In this document: piece after piece, positions 53,740-64,000 of the stretch
Numbering within the stretch: position 1 is the stretch's first letter
Layout: each line of letters opens with the position of its first letter
Sequence record: MT446392.1
Source: Escherichia virus TH15
Length of the DNA stretch: 64,000 bases
Strand: one strand, 5' to 3'
Notes under the pieces: generated by a model
Database searches by the model: none
What the model was told of the DNA's origin: nothing
What the model saw: the letters and a program-made list of their open reading frames with translations, nothing else
Made by a program: the position numbers and the translations under genes

Positions 53740-54495
53740 ATGAATTATCTAAAAATATATGAATCTTTAATAGTATCTGCTATTAAAAGACCTCTTACAC
53801 AAGGATACACCGAAAAACATCATATTTTACCGAAATCGATGGGTGGTAATGATTCTATTGATAATTTAGTTACCCTTACCGCCCGTGAACATTTTATTGC
53901 ACACTTATTATTGGCAAGAATTTTTAAGAATCGCGAAATGTGGTCCGCTGCATATATGATGGCTTCAACAAGTCTAACTAACTCGGATAGACATAGATGC
54001 TCGTCACATTTATATGAATTATTGCGTAAACAAGCGTCGGTATATAATTCAGGTGAAAATTCTCCAAATTGGGGAATAAAACGTTCTGAAGAAACACGAT
54101 TAAAAATGTCAATTTCAAAAATGGGTATCAGGAATCCAATGTACGGTATTCCACAATGTTTGGAACACTCTCATAAAATTAGCCTTGGTGTTACCGAAGC
54201 TTTTAAAAATCCAGAAATGAAAGAACGCCACCGTCAAAGTGTTTCTGGAGAGAATAATGGGTTTTATGGAAAAAAACATTCCGAAAAAAGTTTGGAAAAA
54301 CAGCGGAATACAAAACGGAAAGGATTTCCTTGGGACAATTATTTGGAATTGTACCCAATTTGGGTTTCATTAAATTGCCCCAAGCATCCAACATTCACAA
54401 ATGAACTTGTTAAATTGGGATACCCCAAAAAGAAGCTTGTTCGAATAGTGGAAGAGTTTAAAAATGAATATATTCGAAATGCTACGCATAGATGA
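53740..54495 (+). CDS. HNH homing endonuclease (Mob-like) with NUMOD3 repeats
   Basis: 251 aa; [34 protein letters not shown] motif; ENSPNWG / NPMYG / [11 protein letters not shown] repeats; overlaps e start by 32 nt. Confidence 0.8.
53740..54495 (+). mobile_element. free-standing HNH homing endonuclease gene inserted between nudE and e
   Basis: Same as CDS. Confidence 0.6.
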
Positions 54496-54952
54496 AGGTT
54501 GTAAATTAGATTTGTATAAAGATACCGAGGGGTACTATACCATTGGTATCGGGCAACTGATAACTAAGAACCCATCGAAAGATGTTGCTCGTGCCGAGCT
54601 CGACAAGCTCATGGGTCGCGTCTGTAATGGTCGCATAACCCAGCACGAAGCTGAAACATTGTTTAACCGTTCGGTCGAAAAAGCTAAAGCCGGAATATTG
54701 AGGCATCCTGTCTTAAAACCTGTTTATGATGTACTGGATGAAGTTCGTCGTTGTGCACTCATTAATATGGTATTCCAGATGGGTGTTGCCGGGGTTGCTG
54801 GTTTTCCTAAGGGACTGCGATTGCTCAAGGCCAAATCGTGGGAAGCTGCTGCTAAGGAACTGGCGGACTCAAGATGGTATAAAGTCCAGACTCCAAACCG
54901 GGCCAAACGAGTTATTGAAACTTTCCGTACTGGAACTTTTGACGCTTATTAG
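54464..54952 (+). CDS. e: endolysin (T4 lysozyme)
   Basis: 162 aa; [12 protein letters not shown]...[13 protein letters not shown]...[12 protein letters not shown]...NRAKRVI.TFRTGT.DAY matches T4 E. Confidence 0.97.
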
Positions 54953-54989
54953 TTTACATCTCCAAACGATAGGGTTATAATGACCCTAT
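54952..54989 (+). promoter_or_regulatory. early promoter GTTTAC / TATAAT with -10 inside inverted repeat ATAGGGT/ACCCTAT
   Basis: Upstream of denV. Confidence 0.5.
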
Positions 54990-55007
54990 CAACTACGGAG
55001 AACAAAC

Positions 55008-55424
55008 ATGACTCGCATTAATTTAACCCTGGTATCTGAACTTGCTGACCAACACCTTATGGCTGAATACCGCGAGCTTCCTCGCGTGTTTGGTGCTGTT
55101 CGTAAGCATGTGCAAAATGGTAAAAAGGTGTCTGACTTTAAAATCCCATCATCTTTTCTTTTAGGAACTGGTCATGTCACCTTCTTTTATGATAAGCTTT
55201 TGTTCCTTAAAAACCGTCATCAAGAACTTATTGCTGAATGTTTAAAGCGAGGGTTTAATATAAAAGATATTTCTACCCAAGATTTAAATGATATTCCTGA
55301 TGAATGGAAGAATGATTATCAACCATCAATCTGGTCAATTGAAATCAGTCAATCCAGACTGAATGAGAAAATTTCTCAAAAGCCTACCTGGTACAAATAC
55401 TATGGGAAAGCTGTGTACGCTTAA
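55008..55424 (+). CDS. denV: DenV endonuclease V (pyrimidine dimer DNA glycosylase)
   Basis: 138 aa; [34 protein letters not shown] matches T4 DenV nearly throughout. Confidence 0.97.
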
Positions 55425-55442
55425 CTAAAAAGGTTGTATAAT
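55413..55442 (+). promoter_or_regulatory. early promoter GTGTAC / TATAAT
   Basis: Overlaps denV 3' end. Confidence 0.45.
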
Positions 55443-55472
55443 GATTTTATCAACCAAACAATGGAATATAAA

Positions 55473-55736
55473 ATGAAAACTTATCAAGAATTTATTACTG
55501 AATCTGCCAAAGCTCCTGCTGGTTCCTTTAAAGTCCGTGCCTTCGCTGGTGATGCTGAAGACTTTGGCTCACTGAAGCGCAACGGTTATTCTTTCTTTGG
55601 TGGTGATGGTAAAGAAATTGTTACCTATGCAAAACGTCGCGAAATCGCATTCGTGGTTGCTGGTAAGAAAGTATCCCCAGAAGATATTGAAGTTGACTTT
55701 GAGACCTTTGGTATTGTTTCTGGCGGTAAAGCTTAA
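55473..55736 (+). CDS. internal-protein-like protein (CTS MKTYQEFITE)
   Basis: 87 aa from ATG 55473. Confidence 0.65.
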   Translation: MKTYQEFITESAKAPAGSFKVRAFAGDAEDFGSLKRNGYSFFGGDGKEIVTYAKRREIAFVVAGKKVSPEDIEVDFETFGIVSGGKA

Positions 55737-55738
55737 CT

Positions 55739-55767
55739 GTTTACTTTATGATGGGATAGTGTATAAT
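55739..55767 (+). promoter_or_regulatory. early promoter GTTTAC-17-TATAAT whose -10 box contains the ATG of the next IP-like ORF
   Basis: GTTTAC 55739-55744, TATAAT 55762-55767. Confidence 0.45.
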
Positions 55768-56065
55768 GTTAACTTATCAAGAATTTATCACAGAAGCCAA
55801 AGTTCCTAAAGCATTTCAAATTGGGGTTCAAGGCAATTTAGACCAACAATATGTTGATGCTATTGTAGCAAGCCTCGGTAAACAAGGGGTGCAAGTGGAT
55901 TTGGTTGATTTTACCAAAGGCAATACTTTTAATATTGTTACATCTAAAGGTTCTTTAGCTAAAGTTAAAAAGGCCTTTGGCGTAGCACAAGCATACGAAA
56001 TCGACCATTCTGAATTCGAAAATAAAGGTCGCCAGAACACAATTAAAGGCTCTGGTTCTTTTTAA
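55766..56065 (+). CDS. internal-protein-like protein (degenerate CTS MLTYQEFITE); expression context unusual
   Basis: 99 aa; only possible ATG lies inside promoter -10. Confidence 0.45.
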   Translation: MLTYQEFITEAKVPKAFQIGVQGNLDQQYVDAIVASLGKQGVQVDLVDFTKGNTFNIVTSKGSLAKVKKAFGVAQAYEIDHSEFENKGRQNTIKGSGSF

Positions 56066-56229
56066 TAAAGGCAAACCGACCCTCTCCTCATGAACGTCGT
56101 GTCCTCTGAGTGATGGACCTTTCCCTACCTGTAATAAGGTCGAGCCCGAGTGCGGTAAGGGGTTTACATTCGGATACATGGATGAATTAATGTGCCAAGG
56201 AATGGCCCCAAAACCTTAAGAGAAACAAT

Positions 56230-56775
56230 ATGAGAACTTTTTTAACTGGACCTTATCTATCCCTGATGAATGCTTTTACCCACCATTCTGATGCTCGAAT
56301 AGAAGAACTTTGTAAGACCGATTGTTATATTCCTCCAATGGAAGTCTTGCTCAAAGAATACTGCACACTCCGTATGGATGGCGGGCGACAATCAGGTAAA
56401 TCTACTGCAGTAACTAATTTTGCTGCTAACTGGATTTATGACGGAGGTACAGTAATTGTCCTGTCTAATACCTCGGCTTATGCAAGAATTTCATCCGATT
56501 CTATCAAAAATGATTTTATTCGTTTTAGCGCGGAAGATATTCGTTACCGGCTTTTCCATGATTCATTACGTAGCTTTATCGGTAATAAAGGTTCTAAATT
56601 CCGTGGCCTTGCGCTTTCACGCGTATTGTATATAATTGATGAACCTATTAAAGCTCCTGATATGGACAAGATTTACGATATCCATATGAAAACTGTACAA
56701 CACTGCTGCCATGCTCATTGTTTTAAAACGGGTGAAACAGTTCGTCCTCAATTTTTTGTGATTGGAATGCAATGA
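56230..56775 (+). CDS. small P-loop NTPase-like protein (Walker A GGRQSGKST, Walker B LYIIDE)
   Basis: 181 aa. Confidence 0.5.
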   Translation: MRTFLTGPYLSLMNAFTHHSDARIEELCKTDCYIPPMEVLLKEYCTLRMDGGRQSGKSTAVTNFAANWIYDGGTVIVLSNTSAYARISSDSIKNDFIRFSAEDIRYRLFHDSLRSFIGNKGSKFRGLALSRVLYIIDEPIKAPDMDKIYDIHMKTVQHCCHAHCFKTGETVRPQFFVIGMQ

Positions 56776-57128
56776 TGAATACTATCGAAGTTTTTGAATA
56801 TTGTTATAGCAGCTCCGCTTGTAATAAAAAGGCCCTCGTAGAAAACTATGAGATATTCCATTTTAAACCTAAACGGTATCGTTTGACTAAAGGTCCATTC
56901 AAGGGACAACAGGTTCTCTGTACCGCACCAAATGAACGTCTGATGAATATCATTCCATATTTCAAAATGGAATTCATTGGCAGACGTTATAAAGGGCTAA
57001 TCACTCAAAGCCTGATGGCTTATGGCTCTGATCCGATTTTGATGGAACAAACCGAATTTAAAAAGTTTTATACAGGTTCAGCCGTTTTAGCTGAACCTAA
57101 AGGCTTTACGGTGGCCCATCATGGCTAA
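56772..57128 (+). CDS. hypothetical protein
   Basis: 118 aa, ATGA overlap. Confidence 0.45.
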   Translation: MMNTIEVFEYCYSSSACNKKALVENYEIFHFKPKRYRLTKGPFKGQQVLCTAPNERLMNIIPYFKMEFIGRRYKGLITQSLMAYGSDPILMEQTEFKKFYTGSAVLAEPKGFTVAHHG

Positions 57129-57339
57129 ATTGATTATCGAAGGTTCTGATGAAGCCTTGAAAAGATTCGTTGAATGGTTTAATGGCCCGGGCGAACAAGA
57201 CTTTCTGGAAGTCTGGGACGGTGGTCAATGGAATGGTAAAGAAATGGTTTACCCAACTACCTATATCTCCGTGCAAGGGTGGACTGACAGACTTCGTTTG
57301 GTAGAATATGATATCGCAACTGGCGAGGAAGTGAAATGA
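57121..57339 (+). CDS. hypothetical protein
   Basis: 72 aa. Confidence 0.45.
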   Translation: MAKLIIEGSDEALKRFVEWFNGPGEQDFLEVWDGGQWNGKEMVYPTTYISVQGWTDRLRLVEYDIATGEEVK

Positions 57340-57599
57340 TTGAAGATATCAAAGGTTACAAGCCACATACCGACGATAAAATCGGTAAAGTGAACGCTAT
57401 TAAAGATGCAGAAGTTCGTCTTGGATTGATGTTTGATGCTCTGATTGAAGAAGCATATATCTTGAAAGAAAATGAAACAGAGCAACAAACCAAAGAAGAT
57501 ATGGATGCAGTGCAGGCTCTTAAGTATGCTAAGCAACATCTAAAAGAAGCCAGCATGTGGGCATGTCGTGCAGTATTTCGACCCGAGGAAAAATACTAA
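57336..57599 (+). CDS. hypothetical protein
   Basis: 87 aa. Confidence 0.45.
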
Positions 57600-57904
57600 T
57601 GGCGCAGATTAATTCTGGTTTTGGTTATGAGTTATCAACCGCTTCTCATCGCCGCATAAATGATTCCAATCCGTTTGGATTCACATCGAAACAGCCAAAA
57701 ATTCAAAGTCTAGACGATTTCCAGGAAGTTATTCGTAAGGCCTTTCAGGACTACGGGAACTATCTTAAAGAAGATTCAAACGACTGTCTTGAAGAAGATG
57801 AAATTGCTTACTACGAGCAACGCCTTGAACAGCTTAAGAATTTGCACGCTGTTCGTGCCGAAGTCTCACAATCATTAAATAAGCTAATTCGTTTTAAAGA
57901 ATAG
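57599..57904 (+). CDS. hypothetical protein (start at ATG overlapping upstream stop)
   Basis: 101 aa. Confidence 0.4.
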
Positions 57905-57940
57905 TGTACAAGCAGGTTGAAATGAGTTATGATTATCCCA
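57904..57940 (+). promoter_or_regulatory. early promoter GTGTAC / TATGAT followed by TATCCCATCAAAC leader
   Basis: Read directly. Confidence 0.4.
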
Positions 57941-57960
57941 TCAAACAAAAGGAGATAATC

Positions 57961-58419
57961 ATGACTACTATCGATTCAAGTGTTTACATTCGCCGCAATA
58001 AACTTCGTCGTATTTTTGAAACGGAGTTCCTCAAAATTAATAATGCTATCAACAAGGCTTGTAAAGAAGCAGGCCTTGAAGCATTCTTCATTAAGTACAG
58101 TCCACACCTGTTGGACCGTGCAATCCAACGTGAAATTGACGAACAATATGTTTTTGACTTGTTTGGAAAAATCACACCACATGTAAAAGAAATTGTTGAA
58201 TTCCTGGAGATGAAACCACTCCCGGAAGTTGAAGCACAAATTGACCCGAATGTGAACTACCGTCCACTTCGTCTGGAAATCACAGACAAGAACCTATGGT
58301 TAGGAATGACAGTTAACCCAGCTCTTCCTGGGAAGTCTCCAACCATGTGTTGTCGTATGGCGTTTGTTAACTCTAATCGTCTGGAAGGAAAAATTAGCAC
58401 AAAAGTGATTTATATCTAA
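57961..58419 (+). CDS. hypothetical protein
   Basis: 152 aa from ATG 57961, SD AAGGAG. Confidence 0.5.
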   Translation: MTTIDSSVYIRRNKLRRIFETEFLKINNAINKACKEAGLEAFFIKYSPHLLDRAIQREIDEQYVFDLFGKITPHVKEIVEFLEMKPLPEVEAQIDPNVNYRPLRLEITDKNLWLGMTVNPALPGKSPTMCCRMAFVNSNRLEGKISTKVIYI

Positions 58420-58429
58420 TGGGGAATTC

Positions 58430-58972
58430 ATGAAAAAAGTAATAGCCACTTTACTATTGACAGTTAGTATGTCTGCCCATAGCGTAGAGCCTACTTTCAG
58501 TAATGAACAGATGGAAAATCTTCAATATGCGTATGCATTTGGAGAACAGTTCCAGAAAAATGGTAAGTACAAAGAAAATCCGCACCAACATAATGGTTTG
58601 GGATATATCATGGCTGGATTAACCTGGCAGGAAAGTTCTGCCGGGGTTAATACAGGATTAAATAAAGATAAGCATCATGCATATGGTATATTCCAAAATT
58701 ATCTTCCAACCGTGCGCGAGCGCGTAAAACAGGTTGGGTGGACAATGACAGATAAAGAAATAATCAAGATGATAAGCAAGAGAGAGAACAGTGCACGCTG
58801 GGCTTATATTGAGCTTTCATACTGGTTGAACATTCACAAGGGGGACATAAGAAAAACACTATCATCATATAACGCAGGGTGGAATGTGAAAGCTGGAAAT
58901 ACGTATGCTTCACAGGTCCTAGAAAAAGCTAACTACTTAAAATCACGAGGCCTATTAAAAACGGTGGATTAA
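58430..58972 (+). CDS. secreted lytic transglycosylase-like (SLT domain) protein with signal peptide
   Basis: 180 aa; N-terminal signal MKKVIATLLLTVSMSAHS; motifs QESS, YGIFQ, SYNAG typical of SLT family. Confidence 0.55.
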   Translation: MKKVIATLLLTVSMSAHSVEPTFSNEQMENLQYAYAFGEQFQKNGKYKENPHQHNGLGYIMAGLTWQESSAGVNTGLNKDKHHAYGIFQNYLPTVRERVKQVGWTMTDKEIIKMISKRENSARWAYIELSYWLNIHKGDIRKTLSSYNAGWNVKAGNTYASQVLEKANYLKSRGLLKTVD

Positions 58973-59332
58973 ATGGTAAGAGTCATAACTTTAGCCATAG
59001 GGTTAGTATTCAGCACGGGAGGAATAGCTTCAGTACAGAGCGATGATAATAATAGCATCATAGAATATGCAACGAGGACGGCCAAAGATTATTGTGCATC
59101 AAGCAATGTGGATTGTGTAATCCAGTTTAGTGCCAAACTCACTGCTGCATATAAAGACGGTCAAAATGATGTTGAACACACTCTTATGAAAAAGAGTATT
59201 TTATCCAACAAATATGAAAAGAAACTATTTGAAATGGATTGTATTCTGTCGAGTGCCAAATATAAAGCGGCCTGCACCAGTATGGTTGACAGGTTAGTCG
59301 ATTCCTATAACAGAGGATTGAACTCTAAATGA
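58973..59332 (+). CDS. small secreted protein (signal peptide, 4 Cys)
   Basis: 119 aa; translationally coupled to upstream gene. Confidence 0.45.
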   Translation: MVRVITLAIGLVFSTGGIASVQSDDNNSIIEYATRTAKDYCASSNVDCVIQFSAKLTAAYKDGQNDVEHTLMKKSILSNKYEKKLFEMDCILSSAKYKAACTSMVDRLVDSYNRGLNSK

Positions 59333-59793
59333 TTGTTAACTATATTAAGGGCGATATTGTCGCCCTTTTTCTCGAAGGAAACATCATAGCTCATGGCTGT
59401 AATTGTTTCCATACAATGGGTTCAGGCGTTGCTGGCCAACTGGCAAAGGCTTACCCAAAAATTTTAGAAATGGATAAGACATCAACTGAATACGGTTCCC
59501 GAGAAAAACTCGGTGATATGTCTATCGTTTTTAAACATAAACCAACTGGATTTGGTATGTGCTATAACCTTTATACCCAGTATGAACCGGGTCCAAATCT
59601 GGATTATGGTGCTTTAGTAAATTGCATGATAGAATTAAATCGACAAGCAGAATCCCTTTTGTTCAAGCCTGTGATTTATATTCCCAGGATTGGATGTGGT
59701 ATTGCAGGTGGTGATTGGGATAAGGTTTCCCGGTTAATTGATATGTTTACTCCTGACATTGATTTGATAGTGGTGGATTATGAGTCAAACTAG
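59329..59793 (+). CDS. TARG1/OARD1-like macro domain protein (ADP-ribose processing)
   Basis: 154 aa; blocks YIKGDIVA, IIAHGCNCFHTMGSGVAGQLAKAY and IPRIGCGIAGGDWDKVSRLIDMF resemble TARG1-type macro domains as remembered. Confidence 0.65.
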   Translation: MIVNYIKGDIVALFLEGNIIAHGCNCFHTMGSGVAGQLAKAYPKILEMDKTSTEYGSREKLGDMSIVFKHKPTGFGMCYNLYTQYEPGPNLDYGALVNCMIELNRQAESLLFKPVIYIPRIGCGIAGGDWDKVSRLIDMFTPDIDLIVVDYESN

Positions 59794-59986
59794 TATTCTT
59801 AAAAATGCTCACTGTGAAAAGTGTAAATGGCCAGTTGTTTTTGCTTTATGCAACGATGAAATGATATGTGATTTTGATTATTGGTGCTATTGTTCTAATA
59901 AAGGGTGTGTGAATCATGCAGGCGCCGGTTTCTATTCCGGGTTTCAACCGTATCCAGACTTTGTAAAACAAGGTGAACCGAAATGA
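59780..59986 (+). CDS. small Cys-rich (putative zinc-binding) protein
   Basis: 68 aa with 8 Cys. Confidence 0.45.
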   Translation: MSQTSILKNAHCEKCKWPVVFALCNDEMICDFDYWCYCSNKGCVNHAGAGFYSGFQPYPDFVKQGEPK

Positions 59987-60168
59987 GTTTAAGTATTAGT
60001 CAGAAAAGTAGATTGTTTGAGCTTATCCATGAGCTTTTGGACGAGCATACGGAAGCGAACGCTTTTTATGATGAATACGGCCCGATAGATGCCGAACATC
60101 AGGAAGAATTTGCTAATCGGTTTGATGAGAAAGAAAACGAATTAATTGCTTATGTGAATACTCTTTAA
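59983..60168 (+). CDS. hypothetical small acidic protein
   Basis: 61 aa. Confidence 0.4.
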   Translation: MSLSISQKSRLFELIHELLDEHTEANAFYDEYGPIDAEHQEEFANRFDEKENELIAYVNTL

Positions 60169-60177
60169 GAAGGTGAT

Positions 60178-60750
60178 ATGGCGAGTTTAATTTATCATTA
60201 CGCAGCAATGAATGCAGGCAAAACAGCTTCATTGCTGACTGCAGCTTATTCCTATAAAGAGCGTGGAATGAGTGTGCTTTTGCTAAAACCTGTTATTGAT
60301 AATCGGGACTCGGAATCTGAAATTAAATCACGTATTGGTATTAGCCAGGAAGCAAACCTGGTAACGGCCGACATGAACCTGTTTGAATTCTATAAATGGG
60401 CCGAGTCTCAAAAGGATATCCATTGTGTCCTGGTTGATGAAGCTCAATTTTTGTTACCAGAGCAAATTGACCAGTTAGCACGAGTGGTTGATAATTACAA
60501 TATCCCCGTTATGTGTTACGGGTTAAGAACAGATTTTCGGGGTCAATTATTTCCCGGTTCAGCCAGACTTCTGGCTATTTCGGATAAACTGGTTGAATTA
60601 AAGGGCGTCTGCCATTGCGGCCGGAAAGCAACCATGACCGCTCGAGTAATCGACGGTGCTGCTGTAAAGGACGGCGAGCAAGTGTTAGTCGGTGGGAATG
60701 AATCGTACGTATCTTTATGCAGGAAACATTGGCTCGAATTGACAAGCTGA
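60178..60750 (+). CDS. tk: thymidine kinase
   Basis: 190 aa; MASLI..YAAMNAGK.ASLL.AA..YKERGMSVL.LKP.ID.RDS matches T4 Tk. Confidence 0.96.
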   Translation: MASLIYHYAAMNAGKTASLLTAAYSYKERGMSVLLLKPVIDNRDSESEIKSRIGISQEANLVTADMNLFEFYKWAESQKDIHCVLVDEAQFLLPEQIDQLARVVDNYNIPVMCYGLRTDFRGQLFPGSARLLAISDKLVELKGVCHCGRKATMTARVIDGAAVKDGEQVLVGGNESYVSLCRKHWLELTS

Positions 60751-60757
60751 GGTCCTT

Positions 60758-61033
60758 ATGATATATAAGATTTGGACGTATATCTCTATTTTTGTTATTG
60801 CTGGAATTGCATTTATCCCCACACAAACAGATAGCGAGAGATATGAAAGGGAAATTGAAATAGTAGCAAGCACGTACCATTCTGTTAATAAAGAATGCCC
60901 GAATAAAAATGGAATAAATTTACAAAAAGCACATTATATGCTGACTGTTACTAGCCCAGTGCAAAGAATATGGGTTGATAGACATTTTTCTGATTTATTT
61001 GCAATATATTGTTTCAAGTTTAAAAGATTATAA
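60758..61033 (+). CDS. hypothetical small membrane protein
   Basis: 91 aa, N-terminal hydrophobic helix. Confidence 0.4.
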   Translation: MIYKIWTYISIFVIAGIAFIPTQTDSERYEREIEIVASTYHSVNKECPNKNGINLQKAHYMLTVTSPVQRIWVDRHFSDLFAIYCFKFKRL

Positions 61034-61036
61034 ATA
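61029..61036 (+). promoter_or_regulatory. T4-type late promoter TATAAATA on plus strand
   Basis: Exact octamer 72 nt upstream of lipoprotein ATG 61108. Confidence 0.45.
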
Positions 61037-61107
61037 CAGTTACTAACTAGTATTCCGCTATGTTAAGGCTGCAAAGCGTAATCATGACCAACAATAAGGA
61101 GTCCTTT

Positions 61108-61404
61108 ATGGACCTTATTCGAGGACTTTCTCTAAGTCTATTACTAATGGGCTGTTTAGGCCCAAATCTGTCCTCTGCTACAGATGGTAAATTTACCCAG
61201 TATGCAGATAGTGCGATGCAAATCTATTCGCAATTCAAAGAACCCAGCGTCGAGCAGTCCGAACAATTTTGGGCTTTTATTAAAACCGAATGGAACAATA
61301 AGAGTCAATGTGTAAATGAAATCACATGTCAAATTGATGGCCGGGCTGCTGCAGTCGAATACGCTAAATTAATGAAGGTAAAATTGGAAGATGAAATTCG
61401 ATGA
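61108..61404 (+). CDS. putative lipoprotein (lipobox LLMGC)
   Basis: 98 aa from ATG 61108 with strong SD TAAGGAG; signal plus Cys. Confidence 0.5.
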   Translation: MDLIRGLSLSLLLMGCLGPNLSSATDGKFTQYADSAMQIYSQFKEPSVEQSEQFWAFIKTEWNNKSQCVNEITCQIDGRAAAVEYAKLMKVKLEDEIR

Positions 61405-61774
61405 TTTCGTAACAGGTCGTGGGTCTGAGGTGGATTCATACATTGGGTGGCTATTAACCTCTTTAGCATATTTTAAGTCCGCCCATCTTGAAACCAAAAG
61501 TTACGCCCGCCATAAAGCTTATGATTTCTACTTCACAGAAATCCAAGGTCCACTCGACCAGTTCAGTGAGCAATGGTTAGGTTACAGCGGGAAACAATAC
61601 AAAGCTGCATTACCGTCCGCCTCGGACTTGCCGAAAGATACAATTTTGTTTTTAGATGAAATGATTAAAAGCTCGGAAAGAGTCTATAAAGTTGTACCCA
61701 AGGCTATTCAATCGACTCTGGACGATATCGTTGGAGTTTTCTTTCAGACTAAGTATCTGTTAACACTAGAGTAA
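61391..61774 (+). CDS. hypothetical protein
   Basis: 127 aa. Confidence 0.5.
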   Translation: MKFDDFVTGRGSEVDSYIGWLLTSLAYFKSAHLETKSYARHKAYDFYFTEIQGPLDQFSEQWLGYSGKQYKAALPSASDLPKDTILFLDEMIKSSERVYKVVPKAIQSTLDDIVGVFFQTKYLLTLE

Positions 61775-61780
61775 TTCAAA

Positions 61781-61808
61781 AGGTCTGCCTTCGGGTGGAC
61801 CTTTTTTC
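61781..61808 (+). terminator. intrinsic terminator (GGTC...GACC hairpin plus T6)
   Basis: Read directly. Confidence 0.6.
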
Positions 61809-61816
61809 ATTTAGGG

Positions 61817-61852
61817 GTTTACATCCTCATAAAAAGGGTGTACTATTATCCC
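61817..61852 (+). promoter_or_regulatory. early promoter region (GTTTAC, GTGTAC) with TATCCCATCAACTACTGAGG leader
   Basis: -10 assignment ambiguous. Confidence 0.35.
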
Positions 61853-61874
61853 ATCAACTACTGAGGAGAACACA

Positions 61875-62078
61875 ATGAGAATTAAAAATATCAAGATTGA
61901 TGCAGTTAATACTGGTGATGAGGTTGTTATCTATCTTAATGATTATGCAATCTTTATGGACAGTGCCACTGATGAAGAAGTGGTTGAACTCTTACAGAAA
62001 GCTCCATTTGAACTGTGTGAAGAAGATGCTACTCATCTTTCATCAGCAATTTTCTCATTATCATATGTGGTGGAATAA
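61875..62078 (+). CDS. hypothetical small acidic protein
   Basis: 67 aa. Confidence 0.45.
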   Translation: MRIKNIKIDAVNTGDEVVIYLNDYAIFMDSATDEEVVELLQKAPFELCEEDATHLSSAIFSLSYVVE

Positions 62079-62314
62079 TGAAACTTACAAATACCATGGT
62101 TTCATTGGAATATGAAACCAATAATCATATTCTTGAAATTAAGATATTTGATGACAGAAGCATATTTGCTGATTACAGGGGGTACAGAATCCGCTTGGAA
62201 AAGGAACAGCTTAAAGATGTTGAGCTTTTTAAAGAAACATTAAAAAGTTGCGGGTGTAAACTGAAAAATACTCAAGTCCAAGAATTAATTTCTACCATTA
62301 TCAAATACTGGTGA
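62078..62314 (+). CDS. hypothetical protein
   Basis: 78 aa. Confidence 0.45.
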   Translation: MKLTNTMVSLEYETNNHILEIKIFDDRSIFADYRGYRIRLEKEQLKDVELFKETLKSCGCKLKNTQVQELISTIIKYW

Positions 62315-62317
62315 TAT

Positions 62318-62500
62318 ATGATTACTTTAGAACAAATTGAAAAAATTATTAAACTCGCTCGCGATATTGAAATTGACTCATATGAACTAGCTGTTGAACA
62401 TTGCGAAGGATATTCATATTCTGGGATAGAGCAGTGCAAACGTGATTTAAATGGTTCTAAAGAAAAATTAGTCGCTTATCTAAACGAGTTGAAAGCATAA
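62318..62500 (+). CDS. hypothetical protein
   Basis: 60 aa. Confidence 0.4.
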   Translation: MITLEQIEKIIKLARDIEIDSYELAVEHCEGYSYSGIEQCKRDLNGSKEKLVAYLNELKA

Positions 62501-62757
62501 TGGCTGTTGGATTTGCAAAAGATGGTGCTGAACAGTTAGAGATGGAAGCGGTTGTACAAGCCGCTATCACCCATGCGAGAGCACAGGTTTCAGTTGAAAG
62601 GGAGTCTGCTAAATTCTGTTTTGACTGCGATGAAAAAATTCCTGAAGCGCGGAGACAAGCGATTAAAGGTGTGATATATTGTGTTGGTTGCCAATCAATG
62701 CATGATAAAGTTTTTAAACGTGAGCCACGTAACTGTTGGCATAGGAGCATGAGATGA
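62500..62757 (+). CDS. TraR/DksA-like C4 zinc-finger protein
   Basis: 85 aa; CFDC...17 aa...CVGC. Confidence 0.5.
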   Translation: MAVGFAKDGAEQLEMEAVVQAAITHARAQVSVERESAKFCFDCDEKIPEARRQAIKGVIYCVGCQSMHDKVFKREPRNCWHRSMR

Positions 62758-62848
62758 TTTACTATCTTGAACCTTGGGCTTGGTTAATAATGGCTGTAGG
62801 GCCTGTTTTAATTGGTTTATTCTTTTCATGGTTAGCGAGGAAACTGTA

Positions 62849-63064
62849 ATGTTATACGACCCTAGTGGTAATTCTGAAAATGGTGTGATTGTTCTGGAGC
62901 CTGAGCATCCGACTGGTGATGTATACCGTACCGTTGAAGTGTGTGAATGTAATTTCGTTGAAGGAAATACCGGTGGGATTTCCATTGAGCAAGATGATGA
63001 TGTTATTTACCTGGATGCAAGCCAAGTAGAAGCTCTTTATAGTATTTTAAAACATAACCGTTAA
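62849..63064 (+). CDS. hypothetical small acidic protein
   Basis: 71 aa from ATG 62849 with SD GAGGAAA. Confidence 0.45.
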   Translation: MLYDPSGNSENGVIVLEPEHPTGDVYRTVEVCECNFVEGNTGGISIEQDDDVIYLDASQVEALYSILKHNR

Positions 63065-63076
63065 GAGGAAATTAAA

Positions 63077-63631
63077 ATGATTATTGAAAAATCTGGGTTG
63101 TTTGGTGACCTGACTGCCGATGTAATTGATAATGCAATCGTGCTTAAACAAGAAGATGATACAGTCGTTTTGACCATTCAAGATATTCAGAACCTGTACG
63201 AGTTGTCTGTTATTGATGCAGAGCAGTATATTCGAACTCGTAATCGTGTCTTTAAAATTAACGATGAAGTTGTGGCTTGGTTGTATCGAGGTGAAAATGG
63301 CTTTAATCTGGAAACCGAATGGGCTTGTTTATCCATTAAAAACCGTTCAGAATTTTTAGAGAAAATTTTTAAACTCTTCCAAGAAGAGTGTGTACCTGAG
63401 CTCGAATGGAAAATCCCCGGTTGTGATGCTATTATACATTCAAGCGAAACCTTTGAAGGTGATGAAGAAGGTGATTATAATACTGAATTCAGTGTCTACC
63501 AATATCAAGGTCGCGATATGTTATCTATCATCCAGACCCACGGTGGTGAAGCTGAAGTAGTATTCACTAAAGACGAATTAAAAGTTCTGGTAAAATACCT
63601 GAACACTGTTATCCCAACTATGAACCCTTAA
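63077..63631 (+). CDS. hypothetical protein
   Basis: 184 aa. Confidence 0.5.
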   Translation: MIIEKSGLFGDLTADVIDNAIVLKQEDDTVVLTIQDIQNLYELSVIDAEQYIRTRNRVFKINDEVVAWLYRGENGFNLETEWACLSIKNRSEFLEKIFKLFQEECVPELEWKIPGCDAIIHSSETFEGDEEGDYNTEFSVYQYQGRDMLSIIQTHGGEAEVVFTKDELKVLVKYLNTVIPTMNP

Positions 63632-63641
63632 GGAAAATATT

Positions 63642-64000
63642 ATGATTATCAATACAAACTCTTGGCACGCTAAATTACACGACCGTTTTTATGACCGTCA
63701 TTCTCGACCACACTCTTTGTGTGCTTACTTCTGGAAAATTGTATGGGCCTGTTTTGTTTGTGCAGGTTTTATTGGCAGTACAGTCTTCTGCTTAACTGTT
63801 GCAGGTGCTGGTGTATTGGAGCAGTTCTTTGTATTAAGTATTCCGGTTGGTTTAGGGCTAGGGTTTATTTTAGGACTGGCTACAATGGCTATTATTCTGG
63901 CGGTAGTATTTGGTTTAATGTATGGTCTAATGAATTTATGGTCCTGGTATGATTTACGTAAAGAAGAAAAAGAATGGGAACGAATTAAAGCTGGGCGTGA
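63642..64000 (+). CDS. hypothetical membrane protein, 3'-truncated at window edge
   Basis: My own translation from ATG 63642 gives MIINTNSWHAKLH... with two hydrophobic helices and no stop to window end; not in ORF track. Confidence 0.45.
   Translation, partial: MIINTNSWHAKLHDRFYDRHSRPHSLCAYFWKIVWACFVCAGFIGSTVFCLTVAGAGVLEQFFVLSIPVGLGLGFILGLATMAIILAVVFGLMYGLMNLWSWYDLRKEEKEWERIKAGR

Follow-up and report, generated by a model that had tools for sequence, protein, structure and literature searches.

We examined two adjacent genes in a 64,000-nt stretch of T4-like phage DNA (record MT446392.1, referred to as the window). The ORF listing confirmed two ORFs on the + strand, at 58430-58972 (180 aa) and 58973-59332 (119 aa), and held no ORF longer than 49 aa on the strand opposite the pair. 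The stop codon of the first ORF is followed directly by the start codon of the second (TAAATG, 58970..58975, + strand, gap 0 nt), with the sequence GGTGGA four bases upstream of this ATG, and the second ORF in turn ends within the ATGA at 59329-59332, where its stop codon shares bases with the start codon of the gene that follows. The upstream neighbour is a regB orthologue (57904..58419, + strand), assigned by synteny and a match to PF10715 at 5.7e-72; since this Pfam match begins at residue 23, the true start of regB is probably the ATG at 57961. Downstream lie an orthologue of tk.4/adfM, which encodes a macrodomain protein (59329..59793, + strand, Pfam Macro at 1.4e-08) and whose T4 counterpart has been named AdfM, for anti-DarTG2 factor, and the thymidine kinase gene (60178-60750, from the ORF listing and Pfam). 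The DNA from 57800 to 60800 is 98% identical to that of the T4-like phages TH40, TH22, UPEC01 and VR20, and the window is that of a T4-like Gaprivervirus. The gene order regB - vs.1 - vs - tk.4 - tk is common to the window and, as annotated, to UPEC01, SP18 and T4, where it reads in full regB - vs.1 - vs - tk.4 - tk.3 - tk.2 - tk.1 - tk - rI. A promoter and terminator scan of 55500-62000 returned no more sites than were found in shuffled sequence, with none inside the pair, and an Rfam search over 54000-64000 detected no RNA family. In summary, the first ORF (58430..58972, + strand) is orthologous to vs.1 of T4 and the second (58973..59332, + strand) to vs, genes that are both already known. 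The first encodes the 180-aa precursor of a predicted secreted, single-domain SLT/GH23-like protein, and the second a 119-aa precursor, modelled as a small four-helix protein and annotated as 'valyl-tRNA synthetase modifier'.

The Vs.1 protein of the window is 100% identical to a protein of phage vB_EcoM_VR7 that is annotated as vs.1, shows 66% identity to T4 Vs.1, and matches phrog_600, a family of unknown function, at 1.9e-67 over residues 1-178. This full-length match and the position of the gene between regB and vs place it in the T4 Vs.1 orthologous group (PHROG 600). T4 Vs.1 (NP_049725, UniProt P13311 / Y06E_BPT4) has the same length, position, signal peptide and motifs; there is no difference of substance, and the window version is the Gaprivervirus allele. 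By tblastn, Vs.1 was found in 2072 phage records. Beyond the T4-like phages it is present in Kuttervirus (Ackermannviridae, ~33% identity) and in Suspvirus and Felixounavirus (Ounavirinae, 31-33% identity), and the homologues of SUSP2 and LPST94 show signal-peptide features along with the ES, FQN and SYNAG motifs. Vs.1 is therefore one member of a very widespread family of SLT-like proteins with signal peptides that spans Straboviridae, Ackermannviridae and Ounavirinae. Members of this family are often mislabelled as 'endoribonuclease/RegB'.

The case for an SLT-type domain comes largely from an alignment of Vs.1 with 34 homologues, which are 42-78% identical to the window protein. Motif I, W66-Q-E68-S69-S70 (58625..58639, + strand), contains the predicted catalytic Glu, and its residues W66, E68, S69 and S70 are invariant in the 34 homologues, as are G86, Q89 and N90 of the 'GLMQ'-like motif II, G86-I-F-Q89-N90 (58685..58699, + strand). 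In the 'AYNAG'-like motif III, S146-Y-N-A-G150 (58865..58879, + strand), Y147, N148 and G150 are invariant, and at least 90% of the aligned sequences share S146 and A149. E128, W132 and Y159 are further invariant columns in the 34 homologues. Taken alone, the window protein scores 14.7 bits against Pfam SLT (PF01464, E 0.024), which is under the gathering cut-off of 21.3, whereas 33 of the 34 family members match PF01464 at E <= 0.01 (best 1.3e-7) and some clusters of the family carry a precomputed PF01464 match. An AlphaFold2 model built from the same alignment (pLDDT 86, pTM 0.80) has a predicted lysozyme-like fold of the goose type; when it was searched with Foldseek, SLT-type enzymes ranked at the top, at E-values of only 0.04-0.3. 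Aligning the Vs.1 alignment to E. coli MltE with hhalign, which at a pairwise E-value of 0.17 was used for residue correspondence only, placed E68-S69 on E64-S65 and G-I-F-Q on the G-L-M-Q of A-I-G-L-M-Q. E64 is the catalytic Glu of MltE and the residue mutated in PDB entry 4hjy, 'MltE-E64Q'. Searches of PDB chains with Vs.1, by phmmer or hmmsearch, gave nothing useful, and NCBIfam returned only noise for both Vs.1 and Vs. The mature protein is computed to have ~162 aa, a mass of 18.7 kDa, a pI of 9.4 and no Cys. In the literature searched, an enzymatic test of any Vs.1 was not found. Judged by its sequence, Vs.1 is a divergent yet genuine GH23/SLT-type domain with its predicted active-site signature intact. 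This bears out the original prediction that the 180-aa ORF encodes an SLT-like protein, and the SLT-family match by which it was to be checked holds for the homologues, while the window protein itself stays below the Pfam gathering cut-off.

Compared to the known GH23 family-1 enzymes (Slt70, MltC, MltD, MltE/EmtA, the catalytic domain of MltF, and EtgA), to which it shows 12-17% identity in structural alignments, Vs.1 carries an additional helix at its N-terminus (residues 25-38), and a variable insert (~residues 39-57) that some of its homologues lack. It also differs from the bacterial members in being a soluble single domain, with neither a lipobox nor accessory domains, and in its origin from a virulent phage, with early expression. 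Other phage transglycosylases, such as the N-terminal domain of T7 gp16, phiKZ gp144 and the lysozyme domain of phi29 gp13, are parts of virion proteins that are not known to have a signal peptide and act from the outside at DNA entry. Unlike these virion-associated enzymes, Vs.1 is made inside the infected cell and has a predicted Sec signal.

Signal peptides were sought with a rule-based scan that takes into account the charge of the n-region, the best 10-residue hydrophobic window and the -3/-1 cleavage rule. Both N-termini start with positive charge and continue with 10-12 hydrophobic residues as a core (mean Kyte-Doolittle >1.8), followed by an AXA-like site at about residue 18-20. By these rules, the predicted Sec signal peptide of Vs.1 is MKKVIATLLLTVSMSAHS / VEPT (58430..58483, + strand), with cleavage at AHS/VEPT, and that of Vs is MVRVITLAIGLVFSTGGIAS / VQSD (58973..59032, + strand), with cleavage at GIA/S or IAS/V. 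Every full-length homologue in the Vs.1 and Vs families passes the same scan. In both families the sequence of this segment varies freely and the n/h/c pattern is kept (in the case of Vs.1, in all 34 homologues), a combination that is typical of signal peptides. In Vs, a lipobox, LSGC/K, lies at the end of the signal peptide in five surveyed loci (L033-L035, L037 and L052), and residues 1-23 are outside the fold predicted by AlphaFold, with a pLDDT <50. We rejected a reading of the N-termini as signal anchors or SAR sequences, as the cores have just 10-12 residues and AXA-type sites come next. Hence, we infer from these features that both Vs.1 and Vs are exported to the periplasm.

Vs of the window is likewise 100% identical to the VR7 protein annotated as vs, with 45% identity to T4 Vs, and it matches phrog_1256 (valyl tRNA synthetase modifier) at 1.3e-32; its homologues carry PF26829. 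The full-length match, the C-terminal SMVDRLVDSYNRGL and the four Cys assign it to the T4 Vs family (PF26829 / PHROG 1256). T4 Vs (NP_049724, UniProt P13310) shares with it the position, length, four Cys and invariant C-terminal SMVDRLVDSYNRGL, and the two do not differ at the level of the family. The mature protein is computed to have ~99 aa, a mass of 11.1 kDa and 4 Cys, and the AlphaFold model consists of four helices. One pair of cysteines, Cys41-x6-Cys48 (59093..59116, + strand), flanks the loop that joins helices 1 and 2, and both its members are invariant in 23 Vs-like proteins. The other, Cys90-x10-Cys101 (59240..59275, + strand), flanks the loop that joins helices 3 and 4, the helix limits being those of the model; C101 is invariant, and its partner Cys is found in all 23 sequences, shifted by two alignment columns. 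Over the 23 proteins, which are 18-56% identical, the invariant residues are C41, C48, G63, C101 and G115. This arrangement in the model suggests that Vs is probably stapled by two disulfides. No useful match to Vs was found among PDB chains. By tblastn, Vs occurs in 807 phage records, and all of the matches listed are T4-like myoviruses; the Vs relatives found by profile all lie on T4-like phage contigs (73/73 hits). When 1.84 billion representative proteins were searched exhaustively with the profile, only 8 matched at E <= 0.001, and the family is therefore confined to T4-like phages. A partial match of the Vs profile to a 3694-aa repetitive protein (P0164, E 6e-11 via 17 repeats) was judged to be a repeat-inflated chance match. 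Since both Vs.1 and Vs have many conserved homologues, neither ORF is a chance one.

We surveyed the pairing of the two genes in 73 loci: those of UPEC01, SP18 and T4, and 70 more from IMG/VR. What comes directly after vs.1 is, in most of the T4-like loci, an ORF for a protein of ~100-120 aa that has four Cys and a signal peptide, and where the Vs-like ORF follows directly, the gap to vs.1 is between -8 and +7 nt. A second-round HMM detected a Vs-like protein adjacent to vs.1 or close by at 67 of the 73 loci. The Vs-like gene of RB43-like phages is 0.5-1.2 kb downstream of vs.1, separated from it by inserted ORFs. The same HMM found no Vs-like protein beside vs.1 in 44RR-like Aeromonas phages, in Aeromonas phage 25 or in two 310-kb contigs, and no Vs adjoins the Vs.1 homologues of Kuttervirus and Suspvirus. 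In two loci, Vs is internally deleted (L007) or split (L037), with vs.1 intact in each. As Vs.1 occurs without Vs in several groups, and with a broken Vs in these two loci, Vs is not an obligatory partner.

Parts of this picture are already on record. Nolan et al. (2006) reported the similarity of vs.1 to SLT as a 'marginally significant' Pfam match, and cited a 2003 PSI-BLAST match of T4 vs.1 to lysozyme. In recent GenBank records, vs.1 is named 'SLT domain-containing protein' or 'lytic transglycosylase domain-containing protein', and such records place 'valyl-tRNA synthetase modifier' beside 'SLT domain-containing protein'. In T4, both Vs.1 and Vs have been detected by proteomics, with the RNA in the early class and the protein in the middle class (PMC9697503 supplement). 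The T4 data are in accord with the expression from the early region that was originally predicted, and the rule-based scan agrees with the signal peptides expected for the 180-aa ORF, where they are also present in full-length homologues, and for the 119-aa ORF, which abuts the first one at TAAATG. By contrast, a periplasmic SLT protein had been called unexpected for T4, which does not hold, as T4 itself carries vs.1 in that place and the likeness to SLT has been in print since 2006. The description of the second ORF as a small secreted partner was right as to the ORF and its signal peptide, but had missed that this is the named gene vs, the 'valyl-tRNA synthetase modifier'. As it was framed, there is thus little new in the gene pair, since T4 has both genes under these names and the resemblance of vs.1 to SLT was already published.

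On the whole, we consider it likely that the vs.1/vs orthologues encode an exported GH23/SLT enzyme that cleaves murein and a co-translated, exported Vs protein. In this account, the ORFs, their orthology, the motifs, the predicted fold, the signal features and the conservation of the pair are as found here, and the expression is taken from the T4 literature; from these, we infer export, activity and any cooperation. The Vs.1 precursor would be exported by the Sec pathway, with the signal peptide cut after residue 18, and released to the periplasm. The mature protein of ~18.7 kDa would then be a single lysozyme-like GH23/SLT domain bearing the three motifs of family-1 lytic transglycosylases, with Glu68 as the predicted general acid. 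Its likeliest activity would be the cutting of MurNAc-GlcNAc bonds in the host murein, giving 1,6-anhydro-muropeptides. Vs.1 may act from the prereplicative (early/middle) period on, long before the endolysin E, and would not cause lysis by itself; we favour a role in remodelling the infected cell's murein locally and non-lytically over a role in lysis. Vs would be translated from the abutting start codon and likewise exported, as a lipoprotein in one lineage, and would fold as a small four-helix protein, probably with two disulfides. Several observations weigh against this explanation: the window Vs.1 reaches only 14.7 bits on Pfam SLT, below 21.3; the structural and profile comparisons gave E-values of 0.04-0.3 (Foldseek) and 0.17 (hhalign), with no sequence or profile matches in the PDB; and the signal peptides were called from simple rules only. 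An export of Vs also leaves unexplained both the ValRS label and the minimal-medium defect of T4 delta-vs.

The weak likeness of Vs.1 to canonical SLT enzymes, namely 13-17% identity in structural alignments and a sub-threshold Pfam score, could also mean that it is a catalytically inert murein binder, or a decoy for the regulators of host lytic transglycosylases. In line with this, loop 73-78 beside the active site is poorly predicted (pLDDT <50) and the literature searched reports no Vs.1 activity. However, the catalytic Glu and the three motifs are conserved across the 34 homologues, and the motifs are kept in homologues of other phage families at ~31-33% identity. Conservation of that degree is the expected outcome of purifying selection on an active site, which argues against an inert Vs.1, and we regard this alternative as improbable. 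T4 exclusion has been assigned to Imm and to Sp (Spackle), which inhibits a murein hydrolase. A function of Vs.1 in superinfection exclusion, for which the features of periplasmic targeting and the expression before replication are circumstantial support, would require the addition of a murein hydrolase, the opposite of the Spackle mode. Furthermore, neither the sequence nor the gene context points to exclusion and no vs.1 phenotype is reported in the papers found by the literature search, so such a function appears highly improbable. The T4 gp5 lysozyme and Spackle form a pair of a murein hydrolase and a small periplasmic inhibitor. Vs could, in a like manner, be a periplasmic regulator of Vs.1, be it an inhibitor, an activator or a tether. 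In favour are the export features seen in the two proteins, the abutting or overlapping stop and start codons where the genes are neighbours (-8 to +7 nt), the Vs-like genes at 67 of the 73 vs.1 loci, and the finding of Vs relatives solely on T4-like phages (73/73 profile hits, and 807 records in the matches listed). The comparison with the T6SS pair Tse3-Tsi3 (PDB 4luq) and with the g-type lysozyme and PliG (PDB 4g9s) is one by analogy only, and the Vs model resembles no inhibitor among Tsi3, PliG and Spackle. Vs.1 also persists without an adjoining Vs in the 44RR-like and phage-25-like Aeromonas phages, Kuttervirus and Suspvirus, from which it follows that Vs is not needed for the persistence of Vs.1. 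With other ORFs between vs.1 and vs in RB43-like phages, and an internally deleted or split Vs beside an intact Vs.1 in L007 and L037, a regulatory role of this kind seems unlikely.

The place of vs after vs.1 might instead reflect mere T4 synteny, with Vs acting, as its label says, as a cytoplasmic peptide that binds the host valyl-tRNA synthetase. The label is carried in T4 and hundreds of its relatives, and Muller & Marchin (1975/1977), as they are cited in later papers, stand for the binding to host valyl-tRNA ligase. A 2025 transposon screen of T4 showed stronger depletion of vs than of any other gene when M9-glucose was compared with LB, and a clean T4 delta-vs confirmed the defect, forming poor plaques only in minimal medium (bioRxiv 10.1101/2025.11.20.689424). 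This phenotype suits a role in translation under amino-acid limitation, with which it is compatible without proving one. In addition, synteny is just as strong for regB, tk.4 and tk, which have no functional link, and Vs.1 is found without Vs in several phage groups. Against a cytoplasmic Vs stand the signal-peptide-like N-terminus of every full-length Vs-like protein, in a segment that is freely variable, the lipoprotein box LSGC/K of one lineage, and the four Cys kept at two helix-loop-helix turns across proteins of ~20% identity. The N-terminal 23 residues are outside the predicted fold, and full-length His-tagged T4 Vs was insoluble when made in the E. coli cytoplasm. The predicted signal peptide, the lipobox lineage and the conserved Cys thus fit an exported, disulfide-bonded periplasmic protein, and would be unlike a cytoplasmic synthetase binder. 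Even so, we hold the cytoplasmic peptide to be a serious possibility, somewhat short of an even chance. That Vs is a disulfide-stapled envelope protein, exported and a lipoprotein in one lineage, which works with or regulates the Vs.1 transglycosylase, and for which the ValRS label does not describe the physiological role, is by our estimate unlikely.

Nevertheless, the export hallmarks of Vs clash with a functional label that is fifty years old, and this is the sole point at the locus that is worth following up. If Vs were an envelope protein, the classical ValRS-modifying peptide would be encoded elsewhere, or the binding to ValRS would not be physiological, and the defect that T4 delta-vs shows in minimal medium would be an envelope phenotype. 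Hence, the site of Vs action bears on how the minimal-medium phenotype of T4 is to be read.

Homologues of Vs.1 were found with and without a Vs neighbour. In two non-T4-like phages, Escherichia phage SUSP2 (locus L074:2501-3052) and Salmonella phage LPST94 (L075:2453-3070), the Vs.1 homologue carries a signal peptide and lacks an adjacent Vs. In Suspvirus, it directly follows rIIA-rIIB and is followed by the polynucleotide kinase gene, and in Kuttervirus, the next ORF is unrelated and encodes 212 aa. Among the RB43-like contigs (L063-L070, 174-180 kb), a 67-nt gap separates vs.1 from the next ORF, which is unrelated and approximately 133 aa long, and the Vs-like gene is found 0.5-1.2 kb farther downstream; in RB43 itself, a terminator is predicted directly 3′ of vs.1 (supplement to Nolan et al. 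2006). The same supplement predicts a terminator separating vs from tk.4 in RB69 and RB49. In the TH15 window, the ORF downstream of vs (59329-59793, + strand) begins within the vs stop codon and encodes a macrodomain protein orthologous to that of T4 tk.4. A 2025 preprint demonstrated that tk.4 shields T4 from DarTG2 defence and gave the gene its new name, adfM. Older records list tk.4 as 'phosphatase' or 'hypothetical'.

Vs.1 homologues are frequently mislabelled. Among those in five phage records recovered by tblastn (H41, H45, H51, H52 and H56), in UniRef names and at L075:2453-3070, many were called 'endoribonuclease', 'RegB' or 'site-specific RNA endonuclease', labels that apparently derive from the adjoining regB gene; others read 'C-type lysozyme/alpha-lactalbumin family protein' or 'lysin'. 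Similarly, the Vs label is often cut to 'valyl-tRNA synthetase'. The start of regB also varies between annotations: the mechanically called window ORF (57904-58419, +) begins at a GTG at 57904, yet it matches Pfam RegB only from residue 23 onward, which makes the ATG at 57961 (MTTIDSS...) the more probable start codon; in the closely related phage UPEC01 a third start is annotated, equivalent to window position 57922.

Just 3′ of tk, two further small ORFs with hydrophobic N-termini are present on the + strand, at 60758-61033 and 61060-61404; the UPEC01 counterpart of the second is annotated 'lysis inhibitor regulator RI'. Hence, the early region appears to code for several envelope-targeted proteins.

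Vs itself varies between lineages, and in some phages, an intact vs.1 stands beside a damaged Vs. In Escherichia phage vB_EcoM_005 (L007:4541-4798), Vs is reduced to 85 aa by an internal deletion that removes Cys41 and Cys48, and at L037:4549-4876, vs is broken into two ORFs. The profile search with Vs also matched P0164, a repetitive metagenomic protein of 3694 aa in which 17 repeats align with profile positions 14-54 (E 6e-11); this looks like a chance match inflated by the repeats rather than true relatedness. In five IMG/VR T4-like contigs (L033-L035, L037 and L052), a lipoprotein signal (MKKLFVLLVVFALSGC|K) replaces the ordinary signal peptide of the Vs-like protein encoded directly after vs.1 (e.g., L033:4549-4875). 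This predicted signal implies that the 'valyl-tRNA synthetase modifier' family would have a membrane-anchored form in the L033-type lineage.
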